Source: Macrostomum lignano
Lineage: Eukaryota
Direction of reading: 5' to 3'
Length of the DNA stretch: 64,000 nucleotides
Assembly: GCA_002269645.1 (NCBI GenBank)
Contig: NIVC01003425.1
Coordinates: 91,208 to 155,207, forward strand
Shown here: positions 8,155-46,603 of the stretch, piece after piece
How positions within the stretch are numbered: the stretch's first letter is position 1
How the letters are laid out: every line of letters starts with the position of its first letter
Position numbers and translations under genes: made by a program
Notes under the pieces: model-generated
Seen by the model: the letters and a program-made list of their open reading frames with translations, nothing else
Told to the model about the DNA's origin: nothing
Databases searched by the model: none

Positions 8155-9734
8155 TCATGCATAACCATAAGTAGCAATTGGCAACTCTTTGTCCGACAGT
8201 GATGGCTTATTATTGCAGGAAGGCTGCGGGCACCCTGACAAAGCGCCTTGGACGACTTCCTCTCACAACCAGCGCTGAGGCAATTCTGCACATTCCGCGG
8301 ACTCCTGAACGCATACAGCGCGCCAATACTGTACGCAGACACGCACTCATGCACAGGGGCTGGGTCTGCTCTAACGGCAGTTTTTTCTCATGGATCAATA
8401 TGTTGCACAGTTATTTCTTTCGTTGGTTAGAATACCTTAACTTCACCGAAAGTACCCGTCGTCGCCTTTTCCTCCAATTTTTGTCTTCTGTTACGTGAGC
8501 AAAATCCAAATCAGCACTTTGAAACCTGATACGAGTATTCTTAATGTTTCTGAGTTCAGAACACTGGTAAAACAGAAATGATCTTTTCAAGCCTAATCTG
8601 TATCGAGACCTGCGGGAATTCACAACAGCTCAGAACCCAAGGAGCGGCGATGCTCAGACTATGAAAGAGGTCAGGAATGGCACTGGCACTGTTTACACTA
8701 TCAGTTTTTAAGCCGTAAAAATCTTTCCAATGGAGAGCCTTGACACTAAGCGACCTTATCTACATGTACATGCAGAGTCTCTAGAGCCATTTAAGGAATG
8801 CAGTTAATGGATTTTATCCAGTGCCAAAAATTAATCCAGCTGTGACGGCCCATCTGCCAGCAAGTGGGTCTCATGCAGCTCGATTCGGCTCACAAAGGCA
8901 GAGAAGCGAAGCGGCTCTCTGTTAGAGTCAATCTAATGGGATTTTCGACCGTGCCAGATTCCGCCTCACTTGGACTGCAGCCTGTAGCCTTACGGGCTCC
9001 ATTTGTAAAAACATTTCAATTCCGCCGATTTTAGTATATTTCTACTAGCAATCTAGTGCCCCCTTTTCAGCAAGGATCCAAATTTATTTATGCAAATCCA
9101 TTGAAAGAACGATTTTTTAGAATTTTTGAAAATTTAGCACATTTTCTAAAGCAGCAATTCCTTCTTCGTTTTTTAAATCACCTCGTCTGAGTAAAATTGT
9201 CACGGACAAAGATGTTTGCTATGAGCACTAAGTGCAATCCGAACAAAATTCATCTCTAATCTTCGACGTATGATTTGAACTATATTTACTGAACTGAATC
9301 AGCACGCAACACCTTATTTTCAAAATGATTTTGGAAACCAGATGGACCAGATGGAATATCCCCAAAGCAATCTGATTTCATATAAAATATCAGCCATTAA
9401 ATTAAGCTGTCTATGGTTGGAATGTTCGAGGCTGCATATACATGTACGCTCGTATTGGTCCCGAGGCGAGCGAAGCCCTTAAAGCATTGGGTAATATAAA
9501 ATATACCATTATAATATACTTAATCTTTGATAAGTGAACCAAGCTATTGCAGACTTGCTGCCAATGTCTATGGTCTGAATTAAGGTCAATCACAGAATTT
9601 TTAAAAAGCGTCTGCTAAGATCGACAGCGACATTATGGTCGTACTTTTTGTCACTTATTTCGCCCCGCGGGATTCGGCTCCTCGATCCGGTGCAACTTGA
9701 ACTGCAGCAAAGCTTTCCCATTGCTGCTCTGCGA

Positions 9735-17201: not shown

Positions 17202-18002
17202 TCAGCGGCGGACAAAGAAGTCGCCGCTGCTGGCGCTGCTGAGCGCGGCCGGGACTGCAGCGAACTCCAGCAGGTGGCACAGGCGCTGCTGCTGGCTGAA
17301 GATCACCGCCTGGCAACCGGAGCGGCACCGGTACAGGCACTCGGGCAGCCCGGCACACTGCAATGTTCTGAAGGCGGGCGCATCCGGGACGCTCAGCTCA
17401 ACGAAGGTCCGGTTGCCGGGGACGAACACGTTCCGGTCTGCAGATGTAGAATGGGGCCAGTTGCATTAATGTCAAGCCTTTCTACATCATAGAAAGCAAG
17501 CCTCTCTACGGCTCGTAGAGAGAAATTTGTACTTTAACCTACTTGTGCAAGCGGCTTCCGCACTGCCCGTGTAGCTCAGCCGCAGCACCCGGTTTTGGTA
17601 GCTGCCTCCGCAGTTCTGGCTCAGATTTCCACTGCAAGCATGGGTGCAGTCCGAGTCTGAAGCAGCGCCCTGCGACCCGTACGAGTTGCCGCAGAAGCAC
17701 CAGTATCCGGCCTGCAGAGCCGCGAACTCAAAACTGCCCAGAGCGCAGACGCTGCCGCACAGCTCGTGAGTCATCATCCAGTAGCTGCCGACATATGCGC
17801 CACTGCCATCGTTTATCGACATCAAACTGGAGCTGCCAATTTGTGTGAGGCCGAGGTGCTTCATTTCACCGACGTCTCTCGCGCCATTCGCGCCGTCAAC
17901 GAAGCAGCCGAGGTCCGAGATCTGGAACTGACGGCAGAGAGCGGCGCAGATCAGGCAGCTCATGATCGGAGCGCAGAAGCAGATCCTGTACAGAGCCGGC
18001 AT
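17202..18002 (-). CDS. Secreted WSC + PAN/apple-domain protein (2 exons, ~231 aa)
   Basis: ATG 18002, signal-peptide-like MPALYRICFCAPIMSCLICAALC. WSC motifs LGCFVD...MTHELCGSVC...FAALQAGYWCFCGN...CSGNLSQNCGG. Donor A|gtaggt at 17543/17542, acceptor cag| at 17438/17437, in frame. Exon 2 C..RCRSGCQAVIFSQQQRLCHL is PAN-like. Confidence 0.8.
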
Positions 18003-19276
18003 GGTAGGCTGATTTCCAGTGCGATTTTCAGAGAAAATTGGACTCTTAGAGTAGAGAATGGATTCATCAAAGCTATTTAAAGCGGCATTATAATTGCTAA
18101 CACAGAGACAATGGGCTTTCAATACAGAACCCGCGACGTGTTTGCACAGCTGCGCTGATTGGAATCCGTGGGCTGCTGCCATTGCGTCAAATCGCATAGC
18201 CCCATCGCATAGCCCCGGAAGCACTGAATTCCTAGGCTTTTCGAATACAGCTGCACGCGCTCAAGGCCACAACGTTCGCTCCGTTGCCCTGCCGCTGTTG
18301 GCCACTGCAGCAGTGACGCGGATCTGCACCGTCTTGGCCACTTGGACGTCGCAGCATTCACTTGCACAAGGTGCAATTATTTTAATTGCGCTAAAACAGC
18401 TAACAATGTCAAATTCATCACTTACTTGTCCTCAGTTGTGTTTAGTGAGCCCTGCAGATTCATGTAGGATCTGGCTGGTCCCCTTCGGGATGGCATCGAA
18501 GGCACCCAACTTGTTGCTGACTTAAATATGGCGGCATTTTCGCACCTGCTGCTCAAACAGCTGTCGGTTATTGCTGGCTGAGGGAGGGGTAGCTCTGCAA
18601 TTCCGCTGTTGCTGCAACTGTGTCCGGCATGTCAGGTCGGGTGAGGCGGAAGCAGTAACGGATGCCATTCAGCAGCAATTCAGGGTCATGGATCGTCAGT
18701 CATCAGTTGTCAGACGGGCCTGCTGCGCTGTAGTTTGAGTACCCCAGCCGGGACGCAATTTAGTTTAATGACGTGCTGATTTAGCGCTGGTGCGCTCGTA
18801 GCAGGAGAAGCAGACATACCGGAACCTGCGGTCGCGCTAAATGCAGCCGTTGTGGTTGTTGGACTTCACGCCCCCAGCTGTCCCCCTTCCGTATCGTCGG
18901 CCCAATCTGAGCTTTGAGTTGGTCCACTGCAGGTTGCTGATTGCAGGTTTGCGTCGCTGATTAACTTGGACTTGGATTTTTTTATCATCAGTTGGTTAGT
19001 ACAGTATTACACTCGTAATGCGCCGATAGCAATATTCGCTCGTAAATCCAATGGGATCAAGAGATTTACATCAGTGGACAGAATTTGATGGGTTTGTAAC
19101 CTGGGTTTTGGCTTTAAAAGCATTTGCTATTCCTCTACATGTAAGAGTATTGATAATTGATTTCACCTGCCCTAATAGACAGATGTGCAACCGACAGCTC
19201 AGCCGCAGCTATTGTGCGGTGCATCTGAAGGCCGCGTACGGCTGTTCGGGGTTGCCACACACACCCTCAATTACTT

Positions 19277-23482: not shown

Positions 23483-26400
23483 GAGAAATTAATGCATACA
23501 AAATACGTTAGAAGATTATAAGTTATATATTCTTACAACCTGTTAAAACCCACGGATTTTGAACCCTGTGGCGGCCAGGCTGTACGCGACCGGCAGCACC
23601 AGTGCAGCCATACTGGAAACCCCCCAACCTCTGTCTAGCTGAGGTGGGGTGGGTGCGCACCAAGCTAGCCGGCTCGCTAAGCCGGGGGGGGGGGGGTTGG
23701 CGTAGCCTATCACACGCCACGCCACCTTTTCGCACCTCCCTACTAGGCCCCTCAATCTCGCGCTGTTTGTAAATATTAATATACGCGCAAAGCAGCACAA
23801 AATATTCGCTGCCAAATAAATATTATTGAATTAATTAAGGCCCTCCGCCTCATTGGTGCCCATGCAGCTTGACGCCCATGCAGCGTGGAATGCTGGGCCT
23901 ACGTGGTCGGCCCTGTGCGGTCCTGGCAGCCAACCGCCTTGGCCGACTTGGCAGCCCAGCAGCACCGCAGCCCAGCAACCACAGCAGTAGCAGCAACAAT
24001 CAGCCCAGTCAGCCCGCCCCCTGGTAGCTCCGGGGTCTCGCCTTTCGGGCCCCGTTTGGACCAACCACCGCCACACGCTGCAGCTCATTCTAGGTTAGCA
24101 CCGCTGCTGCTTGCCTAACATCCCCAGCCTCTGTGCAGGAGCCTCGACCCGGCTTACGACCGGCAACTGACTGTCGCGATTGCCTCTGGTGTGGTCCGCC
24201 CTACTCTCTTATCATGGATAAATCATCTATGATCCATGATCCATTGATAAATCCTGCATGTTCATGGTATTTTCATCCATGGATTTTTAAAACTTTCCAT
24301 GGTAAAATCATCCATGTCAGGGAGTTCATACGGGAAAATAAATAACTAAGCTTATAAAAAATTTCAGGCTATTTTATGTATATCTAATAAAGTTTTAAAT
24401 ATATTTAATAAAAGCGAAATTGTAAATACAAAAAATAGTTTAATAAATTTGTTAAAATCTTCACCTACAAATTGCTTTGAATATATTACCAGCAATTTTG
24501 TTGGCCATTTTGTTTCGGTTTAGTTAATTACGGACTTAACTTCCCATAAACATAAATTACTAGGCCTATTTTTCCTTTCTAAGAGGACTCTGTCACTCTT
24601 GCATGTTGTCATCATTTCATTATGTGTCACTATGTGCTATGTTTATGTTTATGTTTTTTCTTAGCTATATACTTCCAGTTCCACTTTTGGTAGCTAGTTT
24701 TAAAATTCGGTGGCTTGTAAGGTTTTTTGACATGCTAATTTTGATCTTCACTCCTTCAGTGAAAATTGTATTTGTAGATATATTAGAAAATAGAAACCCT
24801 ATTATATATTATATTTGGGATGCAAAGATAACCTATAGGGGTTAGATGTATATTTTTGAATGATATTTTGCTGCATTTTTATAATGATAGGTTGGCCTAA
24901 CCAAAGCCAAAGGCCTAGTCTAAAGTGGCATCCTAGACCTAGGCCATAGCCTAATGATAAAAATCACATGGTAGGCTGACAGTTTCAAAATAATAAAAAA
25001 TAATAGTATATTATGGTAATTGGTACTTAATTTCGAGACCTTTCATGTCCTTTGTATCTAATATACAGTCTATAATCAAAACTAGACTAGACTAGGCCCA
25101 ATTAGGCCTAATATTGTCTACTTTGTATCAGAAAATCCACAATGGCACAACTTTATAATTATAGGCCTATATATAGGGCCTAGGCCTTATATTATAATTT
25201 TTATTTAAAATCATAGGGGCCTAGGGTCCCTACATTAAATTTTTTTTATATACAATTCTAATTGGTTTGTCATTGGCCTCTTGATTGATTCTTCAAACCT
25301 TATCTCCTTGTGAAACTTTTTCAGAACAAATTGTTATGGATGATATTGGATTAAGTGCATCTAATTCTAGGCCTCTTCGAAAGCAGACAAAAAGTACTTC
25401 TAAATTTGGAAATGACAATTCAGCATTGTTTTTCTGCTTTATTCTTCACAATGTTGGCCATGATGAGCAATATGTGACCATTGCATTTGGGTCTCCCTAT
25501 TGGCCAAGTACAATAACTAATGATGAAAAGTTGGAACTTGCACAAGTAAGATTTTAAGTTGGATTTATATGCATAATATTTTGTTATTGAGTACATGGTT
25601 TCTAAAACAAATTATTCCAACTACAAATGTAATATTACTTTATTAAATTATATTTTAGGGGACTAAAGTCTTTTTACGCATGTATGGCAAACTATTTTCT
25701 GCTACACTTGTGGCAAAAGGTAGTGAAAGGCAAATGGCTTCAACTATGAACCAACTTTCCAACTTGGTTAGTGAGGCTGAAAATACTGATTCATTGATTA
25801 GCCAAGCTATTGAGCTTTTTGCAATGAAAGATCCCCAAGCTGGCATTGCAAATGTAAGGACAATAAGGTCATCTAGTTCAAAGCAGGTTGCTTCAAGTTC
25901 TAGTTGTCATCAGCATGGACTACTTGACGAGCTTTATGAAGTGGATAGTGAAAGTGGCGAACCAAATTTGGCGATACCAGCTACTCAATCAATGGGTAAA
26001 ACTGCAATATATATGAACTATTAATTGTTTGCAATTTGTTTTTTTTGTTGTATTATTTGATTAATTATTATTTTTTAGAAAAAGCCATTTCTGCATTTGA
26101 GAGAGAGGCATCTTTGGTTGAAAATGAGCAAGCTCGTGCCACAGGCCTCTTGACTACTAAGCAACGGCAGATGGCTTGATTTTGGAGGTGAGGTGGGTGT
26201 CAACCCTCCTCGCCTCTCATTGGCTGGCGCCCCGATCACTAGGTGATCGATACCCGTATCGATATCGGCGCTCGGCGCGCGCGCGCCGCAGGCGCGTGGC
26301 GCCAAGCGCCGTCCAGCCGCAGGCGACCCTCCCCAGCCACCGGCGACCCTCCCCAGCCGCAGGCGCACCTACCGATATGTATGCCCACCCTACCGATATG

Positions 26401-27716
26401 TACCCCGATATGTACACCCTCCCGAGCCGCAGGCGCACCCTCCCGAGCCGTAGGCGCCCATGCCGCAGACGCCCATGCCGCAGGCACCCCGAGTGTACAC
26501 TCTACCGAGCCGCAGGCACCCCGAGTGTACACTCTACCGATATGTACACTCTACCACTCTCCCGATATGTAGTCAACGATATTAGGCTAGTGAAAACTAC
26601 TTATAGTAGGTGAAATTGAGTATATTTACATAAAAATGTAGATAAAACATATTGGTAGGTGAATAATGACGCATAATACATATTGGAGCATATGAGCAGC
26701 AAAAACACACAATGTAGGTGTATGGGCAGAAATAGACAAAGCAGGTACTGTAGGCGCTACATAGGTGGAAATACACACACAGCAGGTGCATACATACACA
26801 CAATGTAGGTGCAAATTGAGTATAATACAGGAAAATTACATAGCATATAATGTAGGCGCATTTTAAACAATACATTTTGCATATTAACCCGCAGGCACAA
26901 ATTTCAGTGCATAGGATAAAATACACACACTGGAAGTTAAGTATAATACAACATATGTATGCAAAATTAAGCATATAATGTAGGTGCAAAGTAAAATATC
27001 CAGCCCAGGATATTCGAGACACGCCCCCAGAGTCAGGGCCGGGGGATCCCAATGTACAGTGCGGGCGGAGTAACAGAGAAATTCCTCCCCAGGGCCGGGG
27101 GATCCCAAGTACAGTGCGGTCAGAGAGGAGTAACATAGAGAAATTCCTCCCCAGGGCCGGGGGATCCCAAGTACAGTTCAGGCAGAGAGCATTCCAATCC
27201 TCCCCAAATGGGGGGGTTATCAAAGACCCCTCACATTGCACAGGGCGGGCAGAATAACAGACCGCATACAAATAGGGGTTTTAGCGGATCCCAAGTACAG
27301 TGCGCTCCATGGTGTTAAATGAGGAAGGATCCCGCCCCAATGTACATTGGAGGTAGAGTAACAGACCGCATACAAAGAGAATTCCAGTCAAACTTTACCG
27401 CAGCTCCCACCCCAAATGAGGGTTTTAGTGGATCCCCAGAGGGTAGCTCTCCAAGTTGAGGGATCCCCCCAGTGTGTTGCGAGGCCCAAGTACAGTGCAT
27501 GCAGAGAGTAACAGAGTACAAAGAGAAATTCCCTTATCAGTCAAACTCGAGCGCGATCTTCAGCCAGGGCAGTCTCCTCCTCATCAGCGCTCTCGAAACA
27601 TCTGTCAAAGTAAAAATATTCAATGTAGACAGATTATATGTAATTTATATACGATTTATATGAAATTAAGCTTACCAAAAATCGGGTTCGCGCTGTACGG
27701 ATACGGCACGCCTCAA

Positions 27717-28214
27717 TTAGCAACCCTCGTCAAACAGATTTCCCCAAGGGTAGGGTTTGATGCTGTCAAGGCAGTCCTGCAGATTGTCCTCTGTCTTGAC
27801 TCGCTTGGCTGGAGGGGGTGCCTCAGGTGCCGGCTTGAAGAGCTTGTCCAAACGGGCGGCAAACATCCGGCGCCACAGTTCAGGCGTGAATTCGATCGTG
27901 TAGCGCCAATTAAACTTTGGGTCCTGATTGAGCCAATTGCGCAGCAAACGGATCCTCCCTCGCGAAGCTTCAACTGCCTTGAAATTGCCCAACAGGACCC
28001 GCTTGTTCACGTGAAGGCGGGCAGCAGCCTCCAGGTCAGGGCGCGCAGCTTCGAGCTTCTTCCACTCTGGCTCGGCCAAGTAGATTGCAGGGAAGCCGTC
28101 CTTCCACACTCCGGCCTCGTTGGTGTAGAGACGCCGAATTTCAATCAAGTTGTGTTCAGTTTCAAATGTGGGCTTCCGCGCCACAAAGTTTTCGTATAGA
28201 GAGATAGAAGACAT
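27717..28214 (-). CDS. Tandem PC4-like (ssDNA-binding) protein, 165 aa
   Basis: LIEIRRLYTNEAGVWKDGFPAIYLAEPEWKKL..PDLEAAAR matches the PC4 pattern [36 protein letters not shown]. A second degenerate unit RIRLLRNWLNQD..TIEFTPELW follows, then NLS-like PPPAKRVK and an acidic tail. Confidence 0.7.
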   Translation of the reverse strand: MSSISLYENFVARKPTFETEHNLIEIRRLYTNEAGVWKDGFPAIYLAEPEWKKLEAARPDLEAAARLHVNKRVLLGNFKAVEASRGRIRLLRNWLNQDPKFNWRYTIEFTPELWRRMFAARLDKLFKPAPEAPPPAKRVKTEDNLQDCLDSIKPYPWGNLFDEGC

Positions 28215-28456
28215 GATTTAGCAGCAGCAGCAGCAGAGAGCTCTCTGACAGCCGTGCAGCGCCTTATATACCCCCGGGTGGAGGGTGGGGTGGGTGATGA
28301 TTTTGGGGTGATTTTTGATGATTTTGGTTGGTTTTTGGCGATTTATCCAATAACAGGCGAGCTGAGCAGATTTTTTAGTATATATACAGACCCCCAGAGC
28401 CAGGGTAGAGAGATAAATCCTTCTCTCTCCGCTCTCTCACGCTCTCTGTTTGCAAA
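28215..28456. promoter_or_regulatory. Putative bidirectional promoter of the Polinton-like element
   Basis: 242 bp between head-to-head ATGs. TATATAA on the minus strand at 28264-28270 and TATATATA on the plus strand at ~28378-28385, each followed by a pyrimidine-rich leader. Confidence 0.5.
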
Positions 28457-31400
28457 ATGGCTAAACGCAGCGCCGCAGCAACTGCTTTTCTGGCTGACAA
28501 GAGGCAACGTCTTTATGGTAAGTTTTAATTAATTTCTGTCTAGACTGTAGTTGCTAGGGTGGGGGTAGGGGCTGAGCAGCAGCAGCAGCTGCAGGGTCTG
28601 TGGGACCGCAGAGTAAACAACAAAGACTGCTGCGACAGCTGCAGGGGTCTAGACTGGAGTTGCTAGGGTGGGGTGCTGCGGCAGGGTCTGTAACAGAGAG
28701 TTGCAGGGGAGGGCTAGACAAGTTTCAGCCGGGTGTGTGCTGATAAGAAATTGCTGCTAGGGGGGTGTTGTCCAGACAGGCTGCAGCTGGGGTGCAAATT
28801 GCTGCGACAGAGAGTTGCAGGGGTGAGTAAACAAAGACTGGGGTGGGGGTTGTCTAGACAGGGAGGGGTGTGCTGATAAGAAATTGCTGCAAAAACAGAC
28901 AGTTGCTAGGGTGCTGCGGCAGATAAGAAATTGCTGCAGAATCGTTGGGGCAGGCTAGACAAGTTACAGCCAGGTGGGGGCAGAGAGTTGCTGGGACTGT
29001 GTAGCGCGGGGACAGACTGATAAGAAATTGGCAGGGGCGCTACCCAGACAGGCTGCAGCTAGGTGCAAATTGCTGCGACAGAGAGTTGCAGGGGTGAGTA
29101 AACAAAGACTGCTGCGACAGGCTGCAGCGGGGGTGCAGATAAGAAATTGCAGAGAGTTGCTGCGGGGACAGCAGAGTAAACTCTGTTAAGAAATTGCTGG
29201 GGCTAGGGCGGGGAAACACGCTGGGGCCAGGAAAATGACAGATTCTTCTGGTTTTTTATCTCCTTGTGTTTTTTCAGACGCGTTTGTCCCGCCAACACAG
29301 CCGGAATCTGTTACCGGACCGGGTGAGTTATCCAGCCCCCCCATTTCCCACACAGACCCTAGCTGACTCACACTCCCCCATTCCCCCATGCAGGTTTTAC
29401 GGCTCGGCTGGATAATCAGCGTGACCTGCCCAAGTTTAGGGCAAAGGGTGTCGAGTATGTGGTGCATATTACCAACACCGAAGATTTGCGGGAGGTGTTT
29501 GCTGACATGCTCGAAGTTTTCAAGCAAGATTTGGCTGGTGATGACTTTATGGCCGCGAAATTCGAGAGCGACAATATGCTCAAAGCGGCCCACACTCCCC
29601 CGGTGCGTGCATCCCGCATGACGGCTGAATTGTTGTTTAAGCACATCAACAAGATTGTACAGTCGGATGCCACTGTCCTGACGGGCAACTTTTCTATCCG
29701 GTTGCTAAAGGCCTGGGTGCCTCGAGGTGGATGTGCTCTCGAGAACAAGCATCTAGAAGAGCGGCACGCCTTCTCCAAGCACTATGTCCGCATCACCAAC
29801 TCGGACAAGAGATGCCTGCTGCGCGCTCTGGTCGTGGCCTGCGCCTACCTGCAATTCGTGGCCAAGTCCATCACCAAGCAGGTGTGGCACACAATCAAGG
29901 CCAATTCGCCCACGCAGACTAAGCTGGTGGCTGAGCTACAAATCGAAGCTGGCCTCTACACGGTAAGTTTCTAGTATTTTTCCGATAAGAATTTTTACAC
30001 AGTATCGTGGAATACTAAAAGATATATTTTCTGATAAGAATTTTTACACAGTATCGGGAATACTAAAATTTTCTGATAAGATTTTTTACACAGTATCAGG
30101 GAATACTAAAAGAAATATTTTACCCTCCACACAGACTCTTCAAACCGTCTCGCAGGCTGGTCCTTTCGGGTTGGATGCACTGCCCGAAGCGATCCGTGCC
30201 CTGAACCGGCTGCATCCGGGGCGCGATTTTGGTGTACGAGTGTACAGGGCAGAGGAGGCCAACAGGTGCATCTTCAACCTGCCTGGCACCGAGATTCTGC
30301 ACCTGCACCTGGTCGAGCAGCACTTTAATGTGGTCACCAAGCTGCCTGCGTTTTTCGGCTCTGATCACTACTGCGCCAAGTGCGAGATGGCCTACGACTG
30401 CGCCAACGCCGAGCACAAGTGCGCTGACGCCTGCAGTACATGCAAGACTCCGGGCTCCAACTGTAAGGCAAACCGCGCATATGTAAGATGCCAGGATTGC
30501 GGGCTAAATTGCTATAATGCTCAGTGCCTAGAAAATCACAAGCGCAAGAATAAGGCGGGCAGATCGCGCTGTGATTCGGTCCACGTTTGCGGCACGTGTG
30601 GCTATCTAGAAGAACTAAAAGTAGGCCAGCCCCCTGAGCATCAGTGTGGTTATGCCAAGTGCCCAGTCTGCAAGCAGTACGACGAAACTGCCACCCACGA
30701 GTGCTTTGTCACCCCGCCCAAAGCCAAAGAGTCTAGCGCCCCGTATGTTTACTATGATTTCGAGACGTACGTGGACTCTGGCAAGCAGCACCGGGTACAC
30801 TTGGTTACGGCTGCCACCTCCTGCGAGGCGTGTCCCAAACTCTTCCCCAGGCCCCGCTGCAGCGTGTGCGGGGGACTACACAGCTCAGCCAATTGCATTG
30901 CGGGACGCGATTTGGCACTCGATTTCACGAGCTGTGCTCGCACAATGACTGTGCCTGTGGGATGCGAGAGTTTGTATCTGTCGGGCCGCACTCTATCGAT
31001 GCATTTTACTGCTGGCTGACTAGTGTGTTCAAGCAGGGGGCAATTGCTATTGCGCACAATGGCTCTGCGTATGACGCATTCCTCCTGCTCGGCGCCCTAC
31101 TCAACGGACTGGCCAAGAAGAAGCCGCAAGTGATCTTCCAGAACAGCCGCCTAATGTACATGAAGTGCGACAAGATCACCTTCAAGGACAGCCTCAATTT
31201 CATCCCTATTGGTCTGGCGCAATTCCCAAAGGCGCTTGGTTTGGGCACCCAACTGACCAAAGGAGATTTCCCGCACGTGTTTAACCAGCCTCAAAATTGG
31301 GGGTACGTCGGTCCCTACTGCTCAATTGATATGTACGGAGGAAAGAAAAACAAGCAGCATGACTCCATCGCTGACTGGCTGGCCAAGCAGGAGGGACAGG

Positions 31401-33495
31401 TGTTTAATTTCAATAAGGAGTACCTGGACTACTGCCTGCAGGACACGTTAATTTTGCGGGAAGGCTGTCTGAAATATACCCGCCTGATTAAGGACATTTG
31501 CGGACTGGACGCATTTGTCCAATCCAACACCATTGCGGGCTTGGCTATGGCTGTTTTCACCACCAAGTTTATGGAGCCCAACACTCTTGGGGTGATTTCC
31601 CGCCGGTCCGATGTACAGTCGCACAAGGCGCGGTGCTGGCTGGCACATTTAAATGCAACCGAGTTTGGCGGCCGGTTGCGGACAGCGGACTCGGGCGGCG
31701 AGGCTTTCGCCATGGGCCGTAAGGTCGACGGCTTCGACCCAGAGACCAGGACAGTGCTGCAGTTTCATGGCTGCTTCTTCCATGGCTGTCCCAAGTGCTT
31801 CCCCAACGGCGACGTGCTGCACCCGCTCAAGAACCAGCCAATGCGGGCGATTTATGAGGAGACTGAGCGCTTCACCCGGTTGCTCTCCACTGCATACAAT
31901 GTGCGTGTTCTGTGGGAGCACGATTATCAGGACGAGGGAGCGCCAGTCCAGCAGCCTATTCGCCTGGAGGATGCCCTGTTTGGCGGCCGTACCGAGGCTT
32001 TTGTCCCGCATGCCGAGGCCACCGAGACTGTAGAGCTGCGCTATCGGGATGTGGTAAGTTTGTACACTTGTACACACAGTTGACATGCGTTTGAGTTTAT
32101 CTTATCCTTATCCCCTAGGTGTCGCTCTACCCGACTGTCAACAAGTTTGACAAGTACCCTGTCGGGCACCCGGTTCACCACCCCGAGCCTCATCTACTGG
32201 ATGAGCTGCAGCTGGCCCGGTATTTTGGCATCGCCGAGGTGTCGATTCTGCCGCCAACCAATCTCCACATCCCGCTACTGCCCTCCAAGATTAACAAGAA
32301 GCTGGTTTTCGGCCTCTGCCGCGTCTGCATGGAGACCCAGTGCAGCAGCGAGTGTACACACACTGACGCTGAGAGAATGCTCCGCGGCACGTGGTCGACC
32401 CCAGAGCTCCACAAAGCCCTGCAGTTGGGTTACAAGCTGCAGTCAGTTCATGCCCTGGCCTATTGGACCGAGACTCGCACGGGCCTGTTTGCAGATTATG
32501 TAAACACCTTTTTGAAGCTCAAAGCCGAGTCTAGCGGTTCGCCGGGATGGCTGAGGACGCCAAGGCTGCCTACATGGCCAGCTTTTTCGAGCGCGAAGGC
32601 GTCCGGCTGGAAAAGGTGGAGGAGAATCCTGGCCTGCGCTTTGTTGCCAAGATTTTTCTAAACTCGTAAGTTTTTCTACTTGCAGTGGGGGCCATGTTTT
32701 TCTACTTACATAAAATTTATTTTTCCCCTGCAGGCTCTGGGGCAAGTTCTGCCAGCGCGACGACCTGACCTCCACAGAGATTGTGGACAGCTACGAGGCG
32801 TGGCTGCAGCGCCTGACAGACCCCTCGATCAAGGTCAAGTCGTGCGAGCCAATTGGGGAGAGCTTCATGATGCTCGAGTACAAGCCCCGATTTGGCGGTG
32901 CTGGCGAGCGGGCGTTCAAGTACGCCAATGTACCTATTGGCGTTTTCACCACCTCCCACGCCCGGCTGCGACTCTACGAGGCTCTGGAGGGTCTAGGAAC
33001 CCGCGTCATTTACGCCGATACCGATTCGTAAGTAATTTTTTCAACTGTCTCTGTCTCTCTTTCTCCCCTTAACACTTTTTATCCTTCTCCTCCTCCTCCC
33101 AGGGTCGTATACCGCTGCTCCCGGGCGAGTACGAGCCTCCGGGCGGTTCGAGTTTGGGGCAGTGGACTGACGAGGTACCTGCTGGCTGCCGCATGGTACA
33201 GTTCACCACGGGAGGCCCCAAGCTCTACCGGTACGTGGTGGAGAAGCCCGACAGGTCGCTGTACTCGGTGCTCAAGTGCAAGGGCATCAGAGTCACGCCC
33301 GAGATTTCCGAGCGCGAGGACGAGCTGCAGGAAATTCTGCGCCACGGGGGCTCTGTCCGCCTGCCCCAGGCCCAGTTCAGGCGCGATAAGGCCAGCTGTA
33401 CAATCCGGACCCTGGAGATGGACAAGACTTTCCAGCGCGTAATGACTAAGAGGGTGTATGGGGCCGCTAGCCGCCCGTATGGCTTTCGTGAGTGA
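28457..33495 (+). CDS. pPolB: Protein-primed family B DNA polymerase, 7 exons, ~1,270 aa after correcting three 1-nt deletions
   Basis: Exons 28457-28517, 29278-29322, 29394-29962, 30156 (or 30135)-32053, 32119-32665, 32734-33027, 33103-33495, all GT-AG. Motifs: NSDKRCLLRAL and EQHFNV (OTU-like Cys/His), Cys-rich region, ExoI YYDFET, ExoII HNGSAYD, ExoIII YCLQD, Vsr-like QFHGCFFHGC insert, motif A DV|VSLYP, B K..LNS|LWGKF, C YADTDS|V, C-terminal KRVY..SRPYGF. Frameshifts near 30925, 32545 and 33120. Confidence 0.9.
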
Positions 33496-33929
33496 GTGAA
33501 AGATAAGGATCTGTCTTTACACGCCTGGGATTCCCCTATGTGCCCACTTGGGATCCCTTGACTCTTGGGGTTGAAAAATGGTTTTACGCCCGCACTGTAC
33601 TTAGGGGTCCTTACTCATTTGACACCTCCTGTACATTAAGCGGGATTCCTTCAAGTGTTAAAACTCCCATTTGACACCTATTCCCTCGGGGCGGTTTGTG
33701 GCCCAGCGGTCCGCCTCTTGGAGTAGAACTCCTGACATGAACTTGCTGCGCTGATTAGCGTACTGATAGCGCAATCGAAATACGTCCATTTTTCTAGCCC
33801 ACTTGTGGGTACATTTACGTTGAAAGATGTTGATGCGTTCAATAACGTTGTAATAATAATAAGTCTCCACATCTTAGGGCGGCGAAACCTCCCTTTTGCT
33901 CATCTATTTTAGACAATAATGAGACTCTG

Positions 33930-34020
33930 ACCCCGGGAGGTTAATGGCCGAGCGGGTAACCCTGGCGGTATAAAACAGGGTGACCCAGGCTCGATTCCTG
34001 GCTGGGGGCTGTAGACTTTT
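33930..34020 (+). ncRNA. Candidate Pol III tRNA-like small RNA inside the Polinton-like element
   Basis: A box TGGCCGAGCGG (33945-33955), B box GGCTCGATTCC (33988-33998), T-arm ccagg/ctcgatt/cctgg, stem accctg/cagggt, closing stem ccccgg/ctgggg, TTTT at 34017-34020. Not a canonical tRNA. Confidence 0.45.
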
Positions 34021-36153
34021 CCGGCCCCTGCGTCCCTATTGGGTTTAATTGTGTTGAAAGTATATCGGGTCATTAGGCCGTGAACCCCCCCTTTTGGGAT
34101 TTCCCCGAACCGCTTTTGTTTAATATTTATGCACCTGCGGGTTAGACAATATTTACTCTTTAGTCGGTGCGACATTATTTACGCGTCTGTTGCACCTGGG
34201 CGTTTGCCTATAATCTGATTATACATGCGTGCCTGTATTATACAACTACACCTTATGCATGCCTTGTAAACCTGCTTTATACATTAATCCGATATGTATC
34301 GAAAGTACACTTTGTAAACCTGCTGTGTGTATTTCCACCTATGTAGCGTCTACAGTACCTGCTTTGTCTATTTCTGCCCATACACCTACATTGTGTGTTT
34401 TTGCTGCTCATATGCTCCAATATGTACATTTTAATATGCAATATGCGTCATTATTCACCTACCAATATGTTTTATCTACATTTTTATGTAAATATACTCA
34501 ATTTCACCTACTATAAGTAGTTTTCACTAGCCTAATATCGTTGACTACATATCGGGAGAGTGGTAGAGTGTACATATCGGTAGAGTGTACACTCGGGGTG
34601 CCTGCGGCTCGGTAGAGTGTACACTCGGGGTGCCTGCGGCATGGGCGTCTGCGGCATGGGCGCCTACGGCTCGGGAGGGTGCGCCTGCGGCTCGGGAGGG
34701 TGTACATATCGGGGTACATATCGGTAGGGTGGGCATACATATCGGTAGGTGCGCCTGCGGCTGGGGAGGGTCGCCGGTGGCTGGGGAGGGTCGCCTGCGG
34801 CTGGACGGCGCTTGGCGCCACGCGCCTGCGGCGCGCGCGCGCCGAGCGCCGATATCGATACGGGTATCGATCACCTAGTGATCGGGGCGCCAGCCAATGA
34901 GAGGCGAGGAGGGTTGACACCCACCTCACCTCCAAAATCAAGCCATCTGCCGTTGCTTAGTAGTCTCTTGGAATCAAGTTTGTATATTCTATTACACCTA
35001 ATTGAAAACCAAATACCAAATGAGTCAATATTTTTGTAGCAATAAGCCTTTTTTATCACTAGGTGCAATTCAAGAAGTGCAACCCCTCCGAGGGGTACAG
35101 ATAGTAAACAGTGAATCGGATGCAACAATGAAAGGTATAATTTTATTTTTTTAATATGATACAATCACATTATTAAAAATCAAAATCACCATATTTTTAT
35201 ATATGAGCATATATCTTACTCTAGATCTAAAACTGTTCATTCAATCCGAGTTGCTTTCTCTTGAGAAGCGTCTTGCTGCAAGGATATGCCGACTTTTAAA
35301 AAAGGATGACAACTTTGGTGGAATGCTAACAATTAAAGAATACCAAAATGAGGTATGTCAGTTTTTTCTTAGCATCAGCAGCATCACGTCTGTAGTATAA
35401 AAGTTCTACTATATAATAACATTTTTTAGGAATTTAGGTGCATTGATGGTTCCCTAGCTGAGCTGTCTTCAATTCTTTGCAACGATCCTAAGGTGTTCCT
35501 CCGAAGGTATATCAAGCTGCGATTTGGCGAAGGCTACTTGCTTGAGCATATAATCGATTCATCCTGTGGTGCTCGCAGTTCCCGAAGGCCTGCTCCATCT
35601 GAGCATGTGACAGAGTTTCAACGTAAATATATATATATAATTTTTTCACAGTTTTGTGCAATTTTTTTATTATAAAGCAATTTAGGCTAATTAATGCTAA
35701 ATGATCTGAATCCAATACTTGGGATATTTTCTAAAAAAACACATTTAGGTCTGAGATAAAAGAAATTGAGGAAAAATAGTTCTAAAGTTCAATACATCCC
35801 ATTGACCTATTTAATGATTAGCATCATAAATCAACTTCCTTTTAAATTTAGCCTATTTCTACTATAAACACAGTACACAATGTCTATTGTAAAAATATTT
35901 TACTATACTCGTGAATTTTCAGGTTTGCTTCAATTGTGCTATCGAACATCTGGCTACGACTTCCACGAAATCTGGAAGTCTGTACGAGACCATCTCAATC
36001 AGCTGGCCAGGGAGGAGACACGGGCGAGAAAGCGAACTTCAACTGCTGCTTCTGGACCCGAGTCAGGGGATTCCATTTCCCGCTCAAGGCGAATGGGACC
36101 GTGAATTGCGGAAAAAATTCTAGTAACTTTTGAATATTTGAATTGCTATTTTT

Positions 36154-38454
36154 ATGTCTAGTAAATCAGAATCTGAGCACTCTCTTTCTACTAATTACTC
36201 AGCCTACTCTTGTCAGGCGATTTCTTCTCCCTCAAATAGTTTTTCTACAAGTAATAGGAGTTCAATTTCAAGCGAAGCCGGTGTAACGCACTCGCACAGC
36301 TGTCCTGACGCTGTGGAAACTTTTATTGGTGAAAACAATGCTGTGCCTGTGCTTGAGGAGAGTTCAGATAGCTTAGCGAATTTGGCTTCCATCTCAGATC
36401 CCAGTGTGCAGGCGGCTCTGATTTTTCAGTGGGCAATTACTTCCGGAGTTTCAGAGGCTGCTCTTGATAGACTCCTGAAGCTACTTTCTATTTTTAGTAG
36501 AGATTCTCTAGCTCTTCCAAATAGCGTCAAGTTGCTCAAATCATTGATTCAAGATACTTGCCCTCTTGATGATAGTGACGTGTCTGAATTTGGCTTTTGC
36601 CCAGAATGCAAAAGCCAGTGTCAGGTTCATTCCCCAAAGTCAAAGGTTGCTGTGACACAGCTCAATATTGTTCCACAGCTGCGGACTATCTTAAGCAGCC
36701 ACACTTCAACTATTCTGCAGTATGAGCAAGAATTGCAAAAGGATAAAAACACAGACGTTTTGAATTCCAAAATAGTTAAAGAACAAGGCTTAAGCCTATC
36801 TTCTGGCAAGTCGCTTCACTTGCATCTTCTAATCTCAGCTGATGGCGCCAATTTTTTTGAATCTGTTCAGAGTAGCTTTTGGCCATTTCAGGCTCAACTT
36901 CTAAACCTTCCTGTTTACATCCGTCAACGCTTTGCAAATTTAATTCTAATTGCTCTTGTTTCATCGAAGGCAGTCCCGCATTTCCAGTCTTTTCTGTCTG
37001 AAATTATGAACAATTTGCCAAAACAGTTTATATTCTCGGAATACACCGTTCATGTCCATTACACACTCTTTGTTTGTGACTTGCCCGCTCTTGCTAAGCT
37101 CTTCTGCATTCACCAGTACAATGGTGCGTTTAGCTGTCCTAGGTGCTTGCACCCAGGTGAGAGCTTTAAAGTATCCGAGAAAGGTAAAAACTGGATCTTC
37201 CGCTATGGTGAAGGCTACTTGTTTCCTTTGAGAAACCCATCTTCCCATCTTGAACACTGTCGGCTCGCACAAATTCGAAATCGGCCTGTTTTTGGCGTAA
37301 AGATGCGCAGTTGCTTGTTAGACTATGTTCCGTTTCCCAGCTGCAATCCTATTGACAGTTTACACTGCTTTTTCGAAGGCCACACCAAGTATCTACTAGA
37401 AGAGCTGTCATTACCTGCAAACAGGCGCGAGTTGTATTTTTGCTCAGCTAATTGCATGGATTTCATATCTAATTGTATTCGTCAATCTATAACTCCTTCT
37501 AGCATCACAATCAACACAAATTTTAAAGGCTTTTCAGATTGGAAAGCAAAGCATTTTAAAAACTTTGCGCTATACTTTCTTCTTCCTACGTTTTTGCAGA
37601 GAATTTCGCATTTTCCATTGAAACTGCTGTTAACTAATTTAGTTCTTATTTATCACATGTTGTATAGCCCCCAATCAAATAAGACTGATATCGAAAAGCT
37701 ATGCAAAGCTTTTATCTCCAATGCTCAGCAAATATTCGGACCGAAAGTACTCCGCCTTAATTTCCACCTGCTTTTGCATATGGCTGAACAGTACGAATTG
37801 TACGGACCTGTATTTAATTATTCTATGTTCGCATTTGAGAGCTCCATTGGCATGTTCAAAAAGTTCTTATGCGGAACTGTGTCATTTGGCCCACAGCTTG
37901 TTCGCAAGTTTTTGTTTCAAAAGTTGCTACATCACTACTTTTCTTGTGTTAAGGACTCTATTGTAGTGGATGCAGTTAACTCTATATCTTTAGAGCCATC
38001 CAGGCCACATGGTATTCTTCGAAACTCACTTGCTTATTTTAATGGACATTTTTTCTCGACAAGCTCAGCTTGTGCGTCGAAAAATTCTAACCATCTTTGC
38101 CAATTGAAGTCCGGCGAAATCTGCACTATTGCAGAGTTCCTCGAGCCTAATACTATTCGAGTGCAAATTTTGGATCCCATTGGTTCGCTGTTTGATTTTG
38201 TTTTACGAGTACCAGCAGCAACTTTCCCCATCGATTTACTTAATTGGAAAGCATTGCTGGAATCCATGTTCAAAAAGTCTTCGACATTCAATTTTGTATT
38301 GATATCCCTGTCTAATGCGCCCAGATCGGCCAGACGCGAACGTATAGTTAATTTTTCAGAGGTCGATCGACCCTGCATCGCTGTTCCAGTAGAATCGTTC
38401 AGCAAAGACTGTTATTGCGCTGTGCCATTGTTCAAAGAGTTTGAACATGATTAA
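36154..38454 (+). CDS. CMC/EnSpm-type (Transposase_21-like) transposase, 766 aa, uninterrupted
   Basis: ISADGANFFESVQSSFWPFQAQLLNLPVYIR, CDLPALAK..QYNGAFSCPRC and DSLHCFFEGH motifs; single open ORF inside the TIRs. Confidence 0.85.
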   Translation: MSSKSESEHSLSTNYSAYSCQAISSPSNSFSTSNRSSISSEAGVTHSHSCPDAVETFIGENNAVPVLEESSDSLANLASISDPSVQAALIFQWAITSGVSEAALDRLLKLLSIFSRDSLALPNSVKLLKSLIQDTCPLDDSDVSEFGFCPECKSQCQVHSPKSKVAVTQLNIVPQLRTILSSHTSTILQYEQELQKDKNTDVLNSKIVKEQGLSLSSGKSLHLHLLISADGANFFESVQSSFWPFQAQLLNLPVYIRQRFANLILIALVSSKAVPHFQSFLSEIMNNLPKQFIFSEYTVHVHYTLFVCDLPALAKLFCIHQYNGAFSCPRCLHPGESFKVSEKGKNWIFRYGEGYLFPLRNPSSHLEHCRLAQIRNRPVFGVKMRSCLLDYVPFPSCNPIDSLHCFFEGHTKYLLEELSLPANRRELYFCSANCMDFISNCIRQSITPSSITINTNFKGFSDWKAKHFKNFALYFLLPTFLQRISHFPLKLLLTNLVLIYHMLYSPQSNKTDIEKLCKAFISNAQQIFGPKVLRLNFHLLLHMAEQYELYGPVFNYSMFAFESSIGMFKKFLCGTVSFGPQLVRKFLFQKLLHHYFSCVKDSIVVDAVNSISLEPSRPHGILRNSLAYFNGHFFSTSSACASKNSNHLCQLKSGEICTIAEFLEPNTIRVQILDPIGSLFDFVLRVPAATFPIDLLNWKALLESMFKKSSTFNFVLISLSNAPRSARRERIVNFSEVDRPCIAVPVESFSKDCYCAVPLFKEFEHD

Positions 38455-42500: not shown

Positions 42501-42752
42501 GGATTAGGGGGTCAAGAAAAACACTAGTTACTGTTTTTTTACTTACTGTTTTAACTTTTTGTCAACTAAAAAAAGTAAAAGAGTAAAATACTAAAAGTTA
42601 AGACTAGATTGTCATTGTCATTCAGAGAGGGACCCACATTATAAAAATGCAACATGACCTAAATGATAGACGCTCACTTGTAGTCGATTTTCTGTACGTT
42701 ATGACTTATTTAACTTCTACTCACATTTCCGTTTTGTACAAACAATCCACAG

Positions 42753-43342
42753 AGACCACCTTACCCGCCGGAAAGGCTGTGCTGCTGCAGTTTTCCGTGC
42801 AGGGTGTGAAGCGGACAGTGGCCCAGCTTCAAGAACAGCTTCTGGAGGTCATTGACATCGTGGCCAAAGCTGACGAGGAAGCGGCTGGTATGCTGCCCAT
42901 GCCAGCTGCAATGGGATGCCATGTCCGTCCAGCTGCAGAGTGTAGTGCTGCTGTGGAGAAGCTCATCGCCAAGAAGTTGCAACCGGCTGCTCCTGCCTCA
43001 CGCCCTGTATCCGTGTCGCGACGTAAGCGGGGGCCACAGCGCCGGGAAGCCGGAAGCCAGGACCAGGAGGCAGCTGGCCCATCAAACAACCCTGCACCCC
43101 GGAGTCTGGCAAATCTGCCGGATATCGTTGGCAAACGCATCGAGCTACTTTATGAGTACACCGACGGCGAGCAGTGGGAGGAGGGCGTGGTGCAACGGGA
43201 GCTCCCATCCAGCACACACCGCCAGGACATCCTCGATCGCAAATTCGAGGTGGCATTTGATAACTACCCAGGGGAACTCCATGCCGTCGACTTGTACAAG
43301 GACTACCTTGGGTCAACATTGAATGTACTCTCAGAGTATTAA
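42753..43342 (+). pseudogene. Orphan terminal transposase exon with Spindlin(Spin/Ssty)-type Tudor domain
   Basis: Acceptor cacag|ag at 42752/42753, same phase as the last exon of element 2. Open to TAA. Homologous to 47300-46604 (LLQFSVQGVKRTVAQL vs LLNFSARGVRFSLAQL; VGKRIELLYEY..W.EGVV..DLYKDY). Confidence 0.7.
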
Positions 43343-43380: not shown

Positions 43381-43757
43381 TTTTTTTTTTTTTTTTTTTT
43401 TTTAGAGGCAGGGGGTTGTGTGCACCCTGGCGCAATTTAAGCGTCATTGGCACACAACCGGCGAGAGGCATTACTGCCCATTCCGCCGACTCCCCTGAGC
43501 AGGCATACAAGCGCGCGGATACGTTACGCAGGCACACACTCACACAGGAGTGTACAGCGGCCCTAACTTTTATCAATTTTTAGGCATGTACACTTCACTG
43601 CGCCTTGGGGGGGGGGTTGGCTCTCAAGGCCGTTAATTGCACAAGCGAGCCAAGCCAAGATTCCAATCCAGCCCCAAATTAATGTGGCTGCACTTGGAAT
43701 CGAGCCTGGGTCGCGGCACACCAGAGCAGCTGCGCTACCGCTGGGCTACGGCCCCCC
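43381..43757 (-). mobile_element. tRNA-derived SINE, copy B, poly(A) tail
   Basis: Same body as 7771-8154; 23-nt T run at 43381-43403; 14-bp TSD ttggattgaagcat (43367-43380 / 43758-43771). Confidence 0.9.
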
Positions 43758-46603
43758 TTGGATTGAAGCATGGCTATCTTTTATATACTAAAACTCTAAG
43801 TGTTTGTATGAATGTATGTAAATGGGGTATGCGCCACGCTTATATACTAATTTTACTCTCTGTAGTCTGTAGGACATTTCTGCAGCTCACTGTTGTGCAT
43901 TTGATGAATTTATAGTTTCTCTGCCTGACGGTATATGCTAATATGCATATATATATGCGACCCTGGGCAATATGCTGGGCACTCTCCAAGTCCTTCAAAG
44001 GAAGATCACGACGTAAAACCGTTTCATTTTTATTTCATATGCAATATATATTGAGTTATTTACAATCGCAATTCAGTAAAAAAAGCAATAACAGATCTAT
44101 TTTGCCCGGTCCAGTGAGTCCTGCCACTGAAAAAAAATAATTTTGCGCAATCAGTGCAGAAGTCACTGCTTAAAATAGATTGATGCATGAGTATATTTGA
44201 ACATTTACATTCCGTCAGTTGTACACCAATTGCCAGGCAAGTCATGGATAGGACTTTAGAATAGATATGTAACAGTTCCAGTGGTAGAGCACTGAATAGC
44301 TCTAAAATGATGTTTTACAAAGGCCACAATTGTAAGGACTCAAAAGGTGATGTCTTACGAAGGCACATTTGGCGTCACTGAAGTGGCTGAAATTTCAAGG
44401 GGGGGGGGTTACTTTAAATGTGCGGCGCGCTCTTGCGCCAAAGTGAAATGTTGTTAAACTTTTCCATTGTCTTCCTTATGAAATTCTGCGTCTTTCTAGC
44501 CCCTGGCAGTACGTGGCACTCTGAAATTAGGCTTAGAGAGTAGATCCAAACATTTTCTTACCCTCGTGCAATTGCCACGAAAAGCAAACATGCGAAATAT
44601 TTCGAAAAAGCCACAATTTAGTCTTCCATCATTCTCATTTTGTATTAAAGTCGTTAGTATTACGACCCATTTCGTAGAAATTTGAATTTTACTTGACACC
44701 CGTATTTTTTAGAAACGGCTTCACTTTTCCTAAAAGTGCAAAATATAGTCATTATTCAACCGTCCACAACTTGGCTTGTAAGCTATGTATCTGTGAACGA
44801 GTGGTTTCATTTTGAAGCTGTGATGTTTATCTTTCTAGGGTATATTAAGTTTTTTCCAACTATTTCATTTTCTATTACTTTTGTGGCTGCAAAGTTAGGC
44901 ACTTTTTAGCATTTTTTACGTCTCGTGACATTCGCGCAACCCTCACTAAAGTCCCTATCTAAGAAGACGATTAATACCGTAGGAGAATAAAATTTTATAT
45001 TGAGGCATAATTGCTAGCTTATAATTAACTTTCTTTCAGTCAATATGACAATAATTTTTTAATTATTTCTAATTGCTTTTTTATTGACTTTTTAATTCAG
45101 ATTTTGTTATTTTTAGACTGTCCAGTGAGATTACCGTAAGTTGAAAAAAACACAAATTTTAGCAAAAAATGATATTTTTTGTTGGCGTACCAGAAAAAAA
45201 GTATTGCACATAAAGAAAAACCAAAGTATACCCTAAAAAGTAAAGAACACTGTTGTTATTTAAAAAAAAAATGGAGACAAAACAATGCACTACAATTAAT
45301 GCGGTGACCAGTCAAAGTGGATACATTTTACGGTAACGAATCGCATTGGCTCCATTTTGAAATGAAAATCACATTTCAAAAAAAGTTTTTTTTCCACAAA
45401 AGGGTACATTTTAACAAAGTTTCGCTACTAATATGCAATGTTCACATTTAAGACAAACCAGTAACTGTATTTTTGAAAGAAAAAAAGTTTTTTTATGGAC
45501 TATATAAAGCGATAAAAAATTTTGTTGCCCAAAAAAAGTATTTAGTCGATCTCCGACGCACTAATTCAGTTTAATGTATGAAAGTGGCACTTCATACCAG
45601 CCGTTCGCAAAGAACTGCTTGTGCATCGGTGTTGTCCGAAAAAAGTTATTGAACTTTATATTTTTTATACTTCTACATGTATTTTGCCATTTAAAATAGA
45701 AAAAGGCTTGTCATTTTTTTTTAAACAGACCGACGCAGTTGTATTTGCACATTCTTCGCCCCTATTGAAATGTAAAATAGATGAAACGTATGCAGCCCAC
45801 TCATTGTGTGTCCGTTTTGAGAAACTTTTCTTTTTGTTTTTCCTGCATTCATGTGCATGCAAACTACTTTGTACTACTTACATAGAAAATATGAAAAAAA
45901 CGAATTTTTCATTACTTTTTAGTTCTTTATTGCAAAAAATAGAAAGGAGAAGTGAAACTTAATGCAGTCATGATTTATTTCAGCCTTGGGGGTCACTGTG
46001 GAGGCTTCCATTGGAAAGCTGCTGAATTTCTGACCCCCAGTAATCAGTATATAGCTATCCCAACAAGTGATCCCTGGCAGTCGCCTGGTCAGCGACTCTA
46101 ACTCCCATCCTACTGCTAAATTGGCCAACATTTTACGTAGGCAATTTAATTAAGTCAATCTGTATTGAGAAGCATTTTAATTCTGAGCTACTACTACTAC
46201 TAGTACTATTTATATATTTTTAACAAATAACCATTTTATTAACTACATATTATTCAGAGTTACTGAAGTTTTAACTTTAAAAAGTTGAATTTGTCCTTGA
46301 GATTCCTTGCAAGTGAGTGACTTTTTTGCAAGGTCATTTTTTACCACTAATTAAATACCTTTTCTTTAATACTACAAGTTCACTTCTTAAACAATGTCGA
46401 CGTTTAAGGTGTATTTACATTTGTGGTCCTTCTTACACTTTAATTTTAAAAGCATTCATAAAATAAAAATAAACGTACTATGCAATTAGAAAGTAAAAGG
46501 TATATTGTTTTTCTTTAAGCCATTTGCCCATTTGTCATTCATTTTTTACACTTAGTATTCAATGAGGCAATGACTCCCGTTTAATTTAATTAACATTTGC
46601 TTT

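Follow-up and report, generated by a model that had tools for sequence, protein, structure and literature searches.

According to the available portions of the cited sources, the polymerase pPolB copies DNA by strand displacement without a helicase, and its replicons often encode a non-OB single-stranded DNA (ssDNA)-binding protein (SSB) of their own (PMC4889955). Virus-encoded SSBs are described alongside strand-displacing pPolB replication in bioRxiv 2021.03.25.437074, the available text of which makes no mention of PC4. In Polintons, terminal-protein and vOTU domains are reported as fusions to the N-terminus of pPolB (PMC11071308), and a Vsr insertion marks the marine pPolB2 (Jeong et al. 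2023, PMC10748475), while vertebrate Mavericks mostly carry (AGT)2...(ACT)2 ends and 6-bp target duplications, the intact ones being intronless (Barreat and Katzourakis 2021, PMC8097293). W89 of PC4 stacks on a DNA base and has its counterpart in Y74 of MoSub1 (PMC7145681). Transcription, repair and RNA binding are further functions in which the PC4-like fold is employed: the PC4 homologue of T5 is implicated in replication and tied to recombination-dependent replication, MRP1/2 are annealing matchmakers and the Whirly proteins act in repair (PMC7549692). The single-chain form of the PC4-like fold is termed 'type I' in the same source (Janowski and Niessing, PMC7549692).

For the adintoviruses, Starrett et al. 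2021 (PMC8502044) show about 28 maps in Supplementary Fig. S2, the machine-read text of which, in the part available, carries the label 'MOSUB' once and 'SSDBP' twice, and neither MOSUB nor Sub1 is mentioned in the main text of that paper. As the single MOSUB label stands beside separate SSDBP labels, the gene may not be general among adintoviruses. No paper naming a PC4-type SSB of Polintons, adintoviruses or protein-primed replicons was found in the full-text literature searched, which includes few of the subscription journals and does not extend to Repbase. Aliases of PC4 paired with Preplasmiviricota or maverick returned nothing relevant among the literature matches listed, Macrostomum lignano is unmentioned among the literature matches listed in the prior-art search, and the prior-art terms do not occur in PMC11071296 or bioRxiv 2026.06.19.733378.

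The locus described here encodes a protein predicted to hold two PC4-like units in one chain (the twin-PC4 protein), next to pPolB, in a flatworm element. The window, that is, the whole stretch of Macrostomum lignano DNA that was analysed (64 kb of contig NIVC01003425.1), contains the element at positions 26153-34964 (8,812 bp), with the following features:

26147 to 26152, forward strand: left copy of the target-site duplication, exact, 6 bp, identified by flank match
26153 to 26787, forward strand: left terminal inverted repeat (TIR), 635 bp, starting with (ACT)2
27541 to 27601, reverse strand: downstream exon, from which the 19-aa acidic end of the database gene models P0001-P0004 reads
27602 to 27675, reverse strand: probable GT-AG intron of 74 nt, GC 0.22, 41 nt past the ORF stop
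27717 to 28214, reverse strand: tandem PC4-like protein (type I, putative single-chain pseudo-dimer) of 165 aa, from the ATG-to-TAA ORF, profile and predicted model
28215 to 28456, no strand: intergenic region of 242 bp, candidate bidirectional promoter, with TATA-like boxes at 28265-28270 and 28379-28384
28457 to 33495, forward strand: pPolB, seven predicted exons and six canonical GT-AG introns, Pfam DNA_pol_B_2 at E 2.7e-18 and 3.4e-12
34318 to 34964, reverse strand: right TIR, 647 bp, its outer 521 bp identical to the left TIR, with one substitution and three gaps overall
34965 to 34970, forward strand: right copy of the target-site duplication, 6 bp, identified by flank match

Of all lengths from 2 to 11 bp, 6 bp is the only one at which the two flanks agree exactly, and both the TIRs and the duplication fall within the ranges used as Polinton criteria (TIRs of 100-1,500 bp and target duplications of 5-8 bp). 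With one substitution separating its TIRs, the element is a recent insertion. The termini (26153-26158 and 34959-34964) read (ACT)2...(AGT)2, the opposite order to the commonest vertebrate Maverick motif. A trinucleotide terminal repeat of this kind fits jump-back initiation. No second copy of the TIR end was found within the window.

The pPolB gene encodes the exonuclease and polymerase motifs in order, together with a Vsr-like motif that was read with motif patterns we take to be appropriate to it, and four of its six introns measure 66-76 nt. As assembled, this copy carries three in-exon frame breaks despite its near-identical TIRs. What we presume to be the Cys and His motifs of a vOTU domain were matched at 29798 and 30321; terminal-protein and vOTU domains at pPolB's N-terminus received no support in Pfam, NCBIfam or PDB. 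The divergent arrangement noticed in the preliminary description was borne out, the ATG of pPolB at 28457 on the forward strand lying 242 bp from the ATG of the twin-PC4 ORF, with two TATA-like boxes in between.

No integrase, packaging ATPase, protease or capsid gene appears in the ORF list of the whole element. The stretches outside the TIRs, the pPolB exons and the twin-PC4 ORF are each 0.75-0.82 kb long and hold no ORF beyond chance length, the two right-arm ORFs of 64 and 88 aa having lengths reached in 420 and 114 of 1000 shuffles, respectively, and a Pfam scan of four small element ORFs returned nothing relevant. A reduced, helper-dependent, non-autonomous Polinton derivative is the best reading of the element, the 6-bp target duplication implying an integrase that the element is without. 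A segment of a Vesanto-like multipartite virus, as described in the available part of PMC8363768, was ranked low, since the element has a 6-bp duplication, introns and ends of Polinton type. In the preliminary description, pPolB and an SSB were held to be the complete replication kit of the element. They are indeed the sole two genes found between the TIRs, but an integrase would be needed from a helper and pPolB has three frame breaks, so the word complete is overstated.

Other features of the element lie outside its two genes. Between the left TIR and the 3' end of the twin-PC4 ORF, a 30-nt repeat occurs five times at positions 27048-27513, along with longer repeats related to it; these are possible protein-binding sites. 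The 64-aa ORF of the right arm (33678-33872, reverse strand) has a hydrophobic N-terminus, a codon GC unlike that of either gene and no Pfam or NCBIfam match. At 33945-33998 (forward strand), also in the right arm, an A-box and a B-box of a tRNA-type pol III promoter lie 43 nt apart; the B-box region recurs in a SINE-like repeat of the host (7783-8155 and 43403-43758), and the feature could represent either the decayed head of a SINE or a small RNA that was captured. Searches for an RNA gene with ARAGORN and Rfam were negative, and the folding of the A-box/B-box region was not significant.

In the remainder of the window, a 766-aa DUF1258/Transposase_21-like ORF (36154-38454, forward strand; Pfam E 1.2e-14), which we take to be a CACTA/Mirage-type transposase, lies 1.2 kb outside the element, and a mariner-type transposase of 394 aa at 51827-53011 (reverse strand) looks intact. 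Two runs of transposase-like ORFs without a clear Pfam match (55056-57236, ending in a weak PHD-finger match, and 46604-50942, both on the reverse strand) are unclassified DNA transposons. The ORFs at 42647-43342 (forward strand) and 46604-47298 (reverse strand) have C-terminal segments that look alike by eye, with no significant Pfam match, and possibly represent one transposon accessory family. A WSC-domain ORF at 17487-18197 (reverse strand; Pfam E 9.1e-14) is probably a host exon.

Several lines of evidence speak for the twin-PC4 ORF (27717-28214, reverse strand) as the real gene that it had been taken for. Its start and stop are intact, homologues exist, and among 1000 shuffles of positions 27541-28456, 6 yielded an ATG ORF of at least 165 aa; the GC content of its three codon positions (0.58/0.42/0.65) is similar to that of the pPolB exons (0.57/0.37/0.68). 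An antisense ORF at 27660-28199, which is without a Pfam match, was rejected, and no second copy of the twin-PC4 ORF is present within the 64-kb window. Going by the database gene models only, the downstream exon at 27541-27601 is a candidate coding extension of the C-terminus of the protein.

All five matches of a first protein search were Macrostomum lignano UniRef models with 71-97% identity, which indicates that the twin-PC4 gene is multi-copy; stretches of at least two of the database copies (P0002 and P0004) are seemingly off-frame. Of the seven matches of the representative search, two were such models, one was a longer variant (P0006) and three were distant homologues; the seventh, P0008, is an unrelated protein of acidic repeats and was left out. 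One more distant homologue, the fourth, came from a profile search, and the next round gave nothing further. These four proteins, of 120-165 aa and 30-41% identity, align to residues 1-128 only. Both units are present in each of them and are about equally well conserved, with a mean pairwise identity of 38% for unit 1 and 35% for unit 2, and ten columns of unit 1 and five of unit 2 are invariant over the five sequences. In three of the four, the chain finishes with unit 2; the other one bears an unrelated tail. The UniRef names of the homologues (Replication endonuclease, TEX11, BSD and others) are mutually inconsistent and were disregarded. Two of the Macrostomum lignano proteins, P0005 and P0006, are near-identical over aa 98-142 and end in long tails of acidic, low-complexity sequence (net -23 and -29), in which a long acidic insert is followed by a terminal peptide like the 19-aa one of P0001-P0004; this suggests a second element subfamily or alternative gene models. 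With P0007 as the query, a phage collection gave no match and the 163 pattern matches of a GTDB scan reduced to one locus (L001); this match covers 23 aa, lies antisense to a gene of a bacterium and was rejected. The best PHROGs match had an E of 0.013, to unnamed families only, and NCBIfam assigned 0 families to 6 proteins.

The protein was divided into the following segments, all encoded on the reverse strand:

28011 to 28211, reverse strand: PC4-like unit 1 (aa 2-68), with invariant E25, R27, Y30, G40 and W51, from profile and structure
27834 to 28010, reverse strand: degenerate PC4-like unit 2 (aa 69-127), built of three strands, an inserted short helix, a fourth strand that is short too and a helix, from the model and a lead in Atlas
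27795 to 27806, reverse strand: K-[KR]-x-[KR] motif resembling an NLS (aa 137-140), preceded by a proline-rich linker, by consensus match, weak alone
27720 to 27794, reverse strand: mildly acidic tail (aa 141-165), with 6 D/E and 1 K/R, net -5

For unit 1, the relationship to PC4 can be read from the sequence. Pfam PC4 (PF02229) scored 11.9 bits (E 0.16) with the ORF alone and 21.1 bits with the best homologue, P0007, against a gathering cut-off of 25 bits. When a profile of the five sequences was compared with 177,635 PDB sequences, human PC4 (E 3.5e-7 to 5.2e-6) and, weakly, MoSub1 were found, with nothing besides these two at E up to 10. In the profile alignment, the invariant Y30 is paired with position 89 of PC4 and R27 with position 86, and K14, R27 and Y30 are invariant in all five sequences. 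Judged by this alignment, unit 1 is predicted to retain the DNA-contacting pattern of PC4, with a Tyr at the W89/Y74 site and an invariant Arg at position 86. The strong unit of the preliminary description is thus upheld by the human PC4 profile match (E 3.5e-7) and by an rmsd of 1.7 Å over 66 residues.

The degenerate second unit seen in that description holds at the level of structure, in the model, the whole-length superposition and the Atlas lead, but not at that of sequence, where it shows no similarity to unit 1 or PC4. The score of the pairwise comparison of the two units was reached in 134 of 2000 shuffles and that of the profile-profile comparison in 15 of 150, so neither is significant, and a phmmer search of PDB sequences with unit 2 did not find PC4. 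Its invariant residues are V73, L75, K79, W114 and F126; the putative equivalent of the aromatic site varies (W, Y, gap, G and F in the five sequences), and the unit is net basic in all five. In Atlas, unit 2 alone scored 0.86, which is below 0.9 and a lead only, and the ten best family-bearing matches were all PC4. The whole of P0001 led to PC4-bearing clusters at 0.87 at best (likewise below 0.9 and a lead only), its best match being a 174-aa viral cluster whose commonest phylum, Preplasmiviricota, is given on one record.

An AlphaFold2 model of residues 1-128, calculated from the alignment of the five sequences, reached a pLDDT of 88.1 and a pTM of 0.79 (pLDDT 86-88 for the five models), as compared with a pLDDT of 34.7 for a single sequence without the alignment. 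Unit 1 is modelled with strands at residues 3-7, 10-13, 23-31 and 37-47 and a long helix at 48-66, and unit 2 with strands at 71-74, 79-84, 87-92 and 107-109 and helices at 111-126, its short inserted helix being the least confident part of the model. A Foldseek search of the PDB placed six PC4 chains at the top (best E 7.3e-3, target TM 0.84, rmsd 1.7), no match reaching E 0.001, and the superposition on PC4 covers 66 residues with an rmsd of 1.7 Å and 23% identity. Structure prediction against PC4 had been proposed as a check on the preliminary description, and the predicted fold is PC4-like; related gene models elsewhere in Macrostomum lignano likewise agree with its expectation of an ORF conserved between copies.

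Over its whole length the model resembles proteins with two repeats. In a VIA-align comparison with 48,161 chains, Drosophila Pur-alpha came first (Z 9.0, rmsd 4.0, 117 residues aligned) as the sole chain with a Z of at least 8, followed by two cyanobacterial proteins, MRP1/2, PC4, Whirly, the T5 PC4 homologue and MoSub1; ranks 1, 3 and 5-10 are PC4-like nucleic-acid binders and ranks 2 and 4 proteins of unknown function. YdbC matched residues 67-128 alone with a Z of 3.6. Superposed on residues 1-128, repeats I-II of human PURA gave a Z of 10.2 (rmsd 3.7, 121 aligned), MRP a Z of 6.9 and Whirly a Z of about 6. On the basis of this model, it is very probable that two PC4-type repeats in one chain form one Pur-alpha-like two-repeat domain. 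The whole-length superposition on two-repeat proteins, with PURA I-II at Z 10.2, supports the earlier suggestion that the tandem fusion would act as a single-chain pseudo-dimer, and the superposition on Pur-alpha, MRP and Whirly implies that the helices would be swapped between the repeats.

Beyond the two units, the preliminary description had listed a basic NLS-like motif and an acidic tail. Both are there, but with qualifications. The protein contains one match to K-[KR]-x-[KR], which we take as an NLS consensus, at aa 137-140, and such a match is common by chance (2538 of 10000 shuffles of the protein hold one too); the net charge of -5 makes for a mild tail and was reached in 209 of 10000 shuffles. 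Neither motif nor tail is found in the four distant homologues.

From the fold and the genomic context, we favour on balance the reading that the twin-PC4 protein is the nuclear ssDNA-binding accessory factor, or SSB, of the element. A shared fold by itself shows no function, co-occurrence with pPolB rests on one element copy and the adintovirus structural matches, and the adjacent pPolB and twin-PC4 genes could have survived deletion together by position alone. In the proposed mechanism, the twin-PC4 gene and pPolB would be transcribed from the shared intergenic region, the element would leave the chromosome, and pPolB would prime at the (ACT)2 termini and copy by strand displacement. The twin-PC4 protein, which would be of the same structural kind as the adintovirus MOSUB, would bind the displaced strand, probably mainly via unit 1, and melt hairpins in the GC-rich TIRs, and the displaced strand would be protected until its ends pair into a new origin. 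A Polinton-type integrase from elsewhere would act in trans to integrate the element and make the 6-bp duplication.

That the protein is instead a transcription regulator, which would bind melted promoter DNA like PC4/Sub1 and control the shared promoter or genes of the host while playing no direct part at the fork, strikes us as fairly unlikely. Its closest sequence match is the transcriptional coactivator PC4, the head-to-head layout around TATA-like boxes would be typical of a regulator and its target, and the acidic tails of P0005 and P0006 could be activation regions. Three of the four distant homologues, however, terminate directly behind unit 2, which places the conserved function in the core, and the host has its own PC4, which makes an extra coactivator less obviously needed than an abundant SSB.

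A role as a strand-annealing or recombination factor, in which ssDNA binding would serve TIR pairing, excision or end repair and not strand coating, is distinctly unlikely in our estimate. The long, nearly identical TIRs would suit it, and the T5 PC4 homologue, MRP1/2 and Whirly, with the roles described in the available part of PMC7549692, are all among the structural matches; yet no recombinase gene was found in the element, and the idea overlaps the SSB proposal, the present evidence not separating the two. Binding of RNA, for instance of element transcripts or a pol III-like RNA near 33945, or action as a decoy for host PC4, seems to us very unlikely. The best whole-domain matches, Pur-alpha and MRP1/2, do bind RNA, and the right arm has its A-box/B-box pair, but the sequence signal leads to the DNA-binding PC4 and not to Pur-alpha (10-11% structural identity), and a single-chain pseudo-dimer would have no free half to offer to host PC4. 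Finally, that the gene is a passenger, a leftover Polinton accessory gene kept in a deletion derivative merely because it adjoins pPolB, seems to us extremely unlikely, for in spite of the three frame breaks in pPolB and the off-frame look of stretches in P0002 and P0004, the ORF is intact with polymerase-like codon-position GC, homologues in other datasets share 30-41% identity with its core, and the TIRs are one substitution apart, so the insertion is recent.

Taking the SSB reading further, one may tentatively picture animals as harbouring capsid-less, integrase-less, intron-bearing Polinton satellites with pPolB and twin-PC4 as their payload, and the twin-PC4 protein, as a relative of MOSUB, as the SSB of Polinton-type replicons; we hold this wider picture to be rather doubtful. 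If true, it would add a further SSB fold among protein-primed systems. The two-gene element points at a concrete SSB candidate of 128 residues, and as an 8.8-kb element with a spliced pPolB and Polinton-type ends, in which no integrase or capsid gene was found, it represents an unusual reduced form. The surprise is limited, as the type I PC4-like architecture and an occurrence in adintoviruses are already on record.

With Polintons and Mavericks, as described in the available parts of PMC10748475 and PMC8097293, the element shares a pPolB with a Vsr-like motif, long TIRs, a 6-bp target-site duplication and a short terminal tandem repeat. Polintons, however, measure 13-25 kb and encode an integrase, ATPase, protease and capsid, whereas the element measures 8.8 kb and none of these was found, and its pPolB has six introns, in contrast to the intronless intact Mavericks of vertebrates.

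The closest viral counterpart came from a Foldseek search of BFVD, a comparison of model with model, in which rank 1 and the only match at E 0.001 or better was 'MOSUB' (A0A5H3CIS2) of Branchiostoma lancelet adintovirus (E 1.2e-4, query TM 0.69, 166 columns); a protein of Drosophila-associated adintovirus 2 followed at rank 10 (TM 0.55, E 0.031). A TM of 0.69 over the 128-aa query exceeds what one unit of 66 residues could give, so MOSUB is probably tandem as well. The likeness is structural and derived from models, with 14% identity, an rmsd of 5.3 and a length of 203 aa for MOSUB, and the host of MOSUB is a full pPolB virus with integrase and capsid genes, of which none was found in the flatworm element. 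The preliminary description had missed that MOSUB was already deposited with a pPolB replicon and that single-chain tandem PC4 proteins constitute the described 'type I' class.

The type I domains (Pur-alpha repeats I-II, Whirly and MRP1/MRP2) likewise have two repeats per chain and superpose over residues 1-128. The identity of Pur-alpha, Whirly and MRP to the twin-PC4 protein is 7-11%, with no Pfam match at E up to 1, and the twin-PC4 protein is shorter than these domains, its second repeat being trimmed, the fourth strand short and a helix inserted. Its link to PC4 in sequence suggests that its duplication was independent of that in Pur-alpha, Whirly and MRP. Human PC4 and MoSub1 (PF02229, type II homodimers) share with unit 1 the aromatic residue at position 89, there as Tyr, but have one repeat per chain and pair as homodimers, whereas the twin-PC4 model has two unequal units in one chain and no N-terminal extension. 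The phi29 p5, Bam35 B35SSB, PRD1 P12 and adenovirus DBP proteins have the same job as that proposed here, each a small accessory beside a strand-displacing pPolB, but the folds differ, being OB-like in phi29 and Bam35 and distinct in adenovirus according to the available part of bioRxiv 2021.03.25.437074, and predicted to be PC4-like in the flatworm element.
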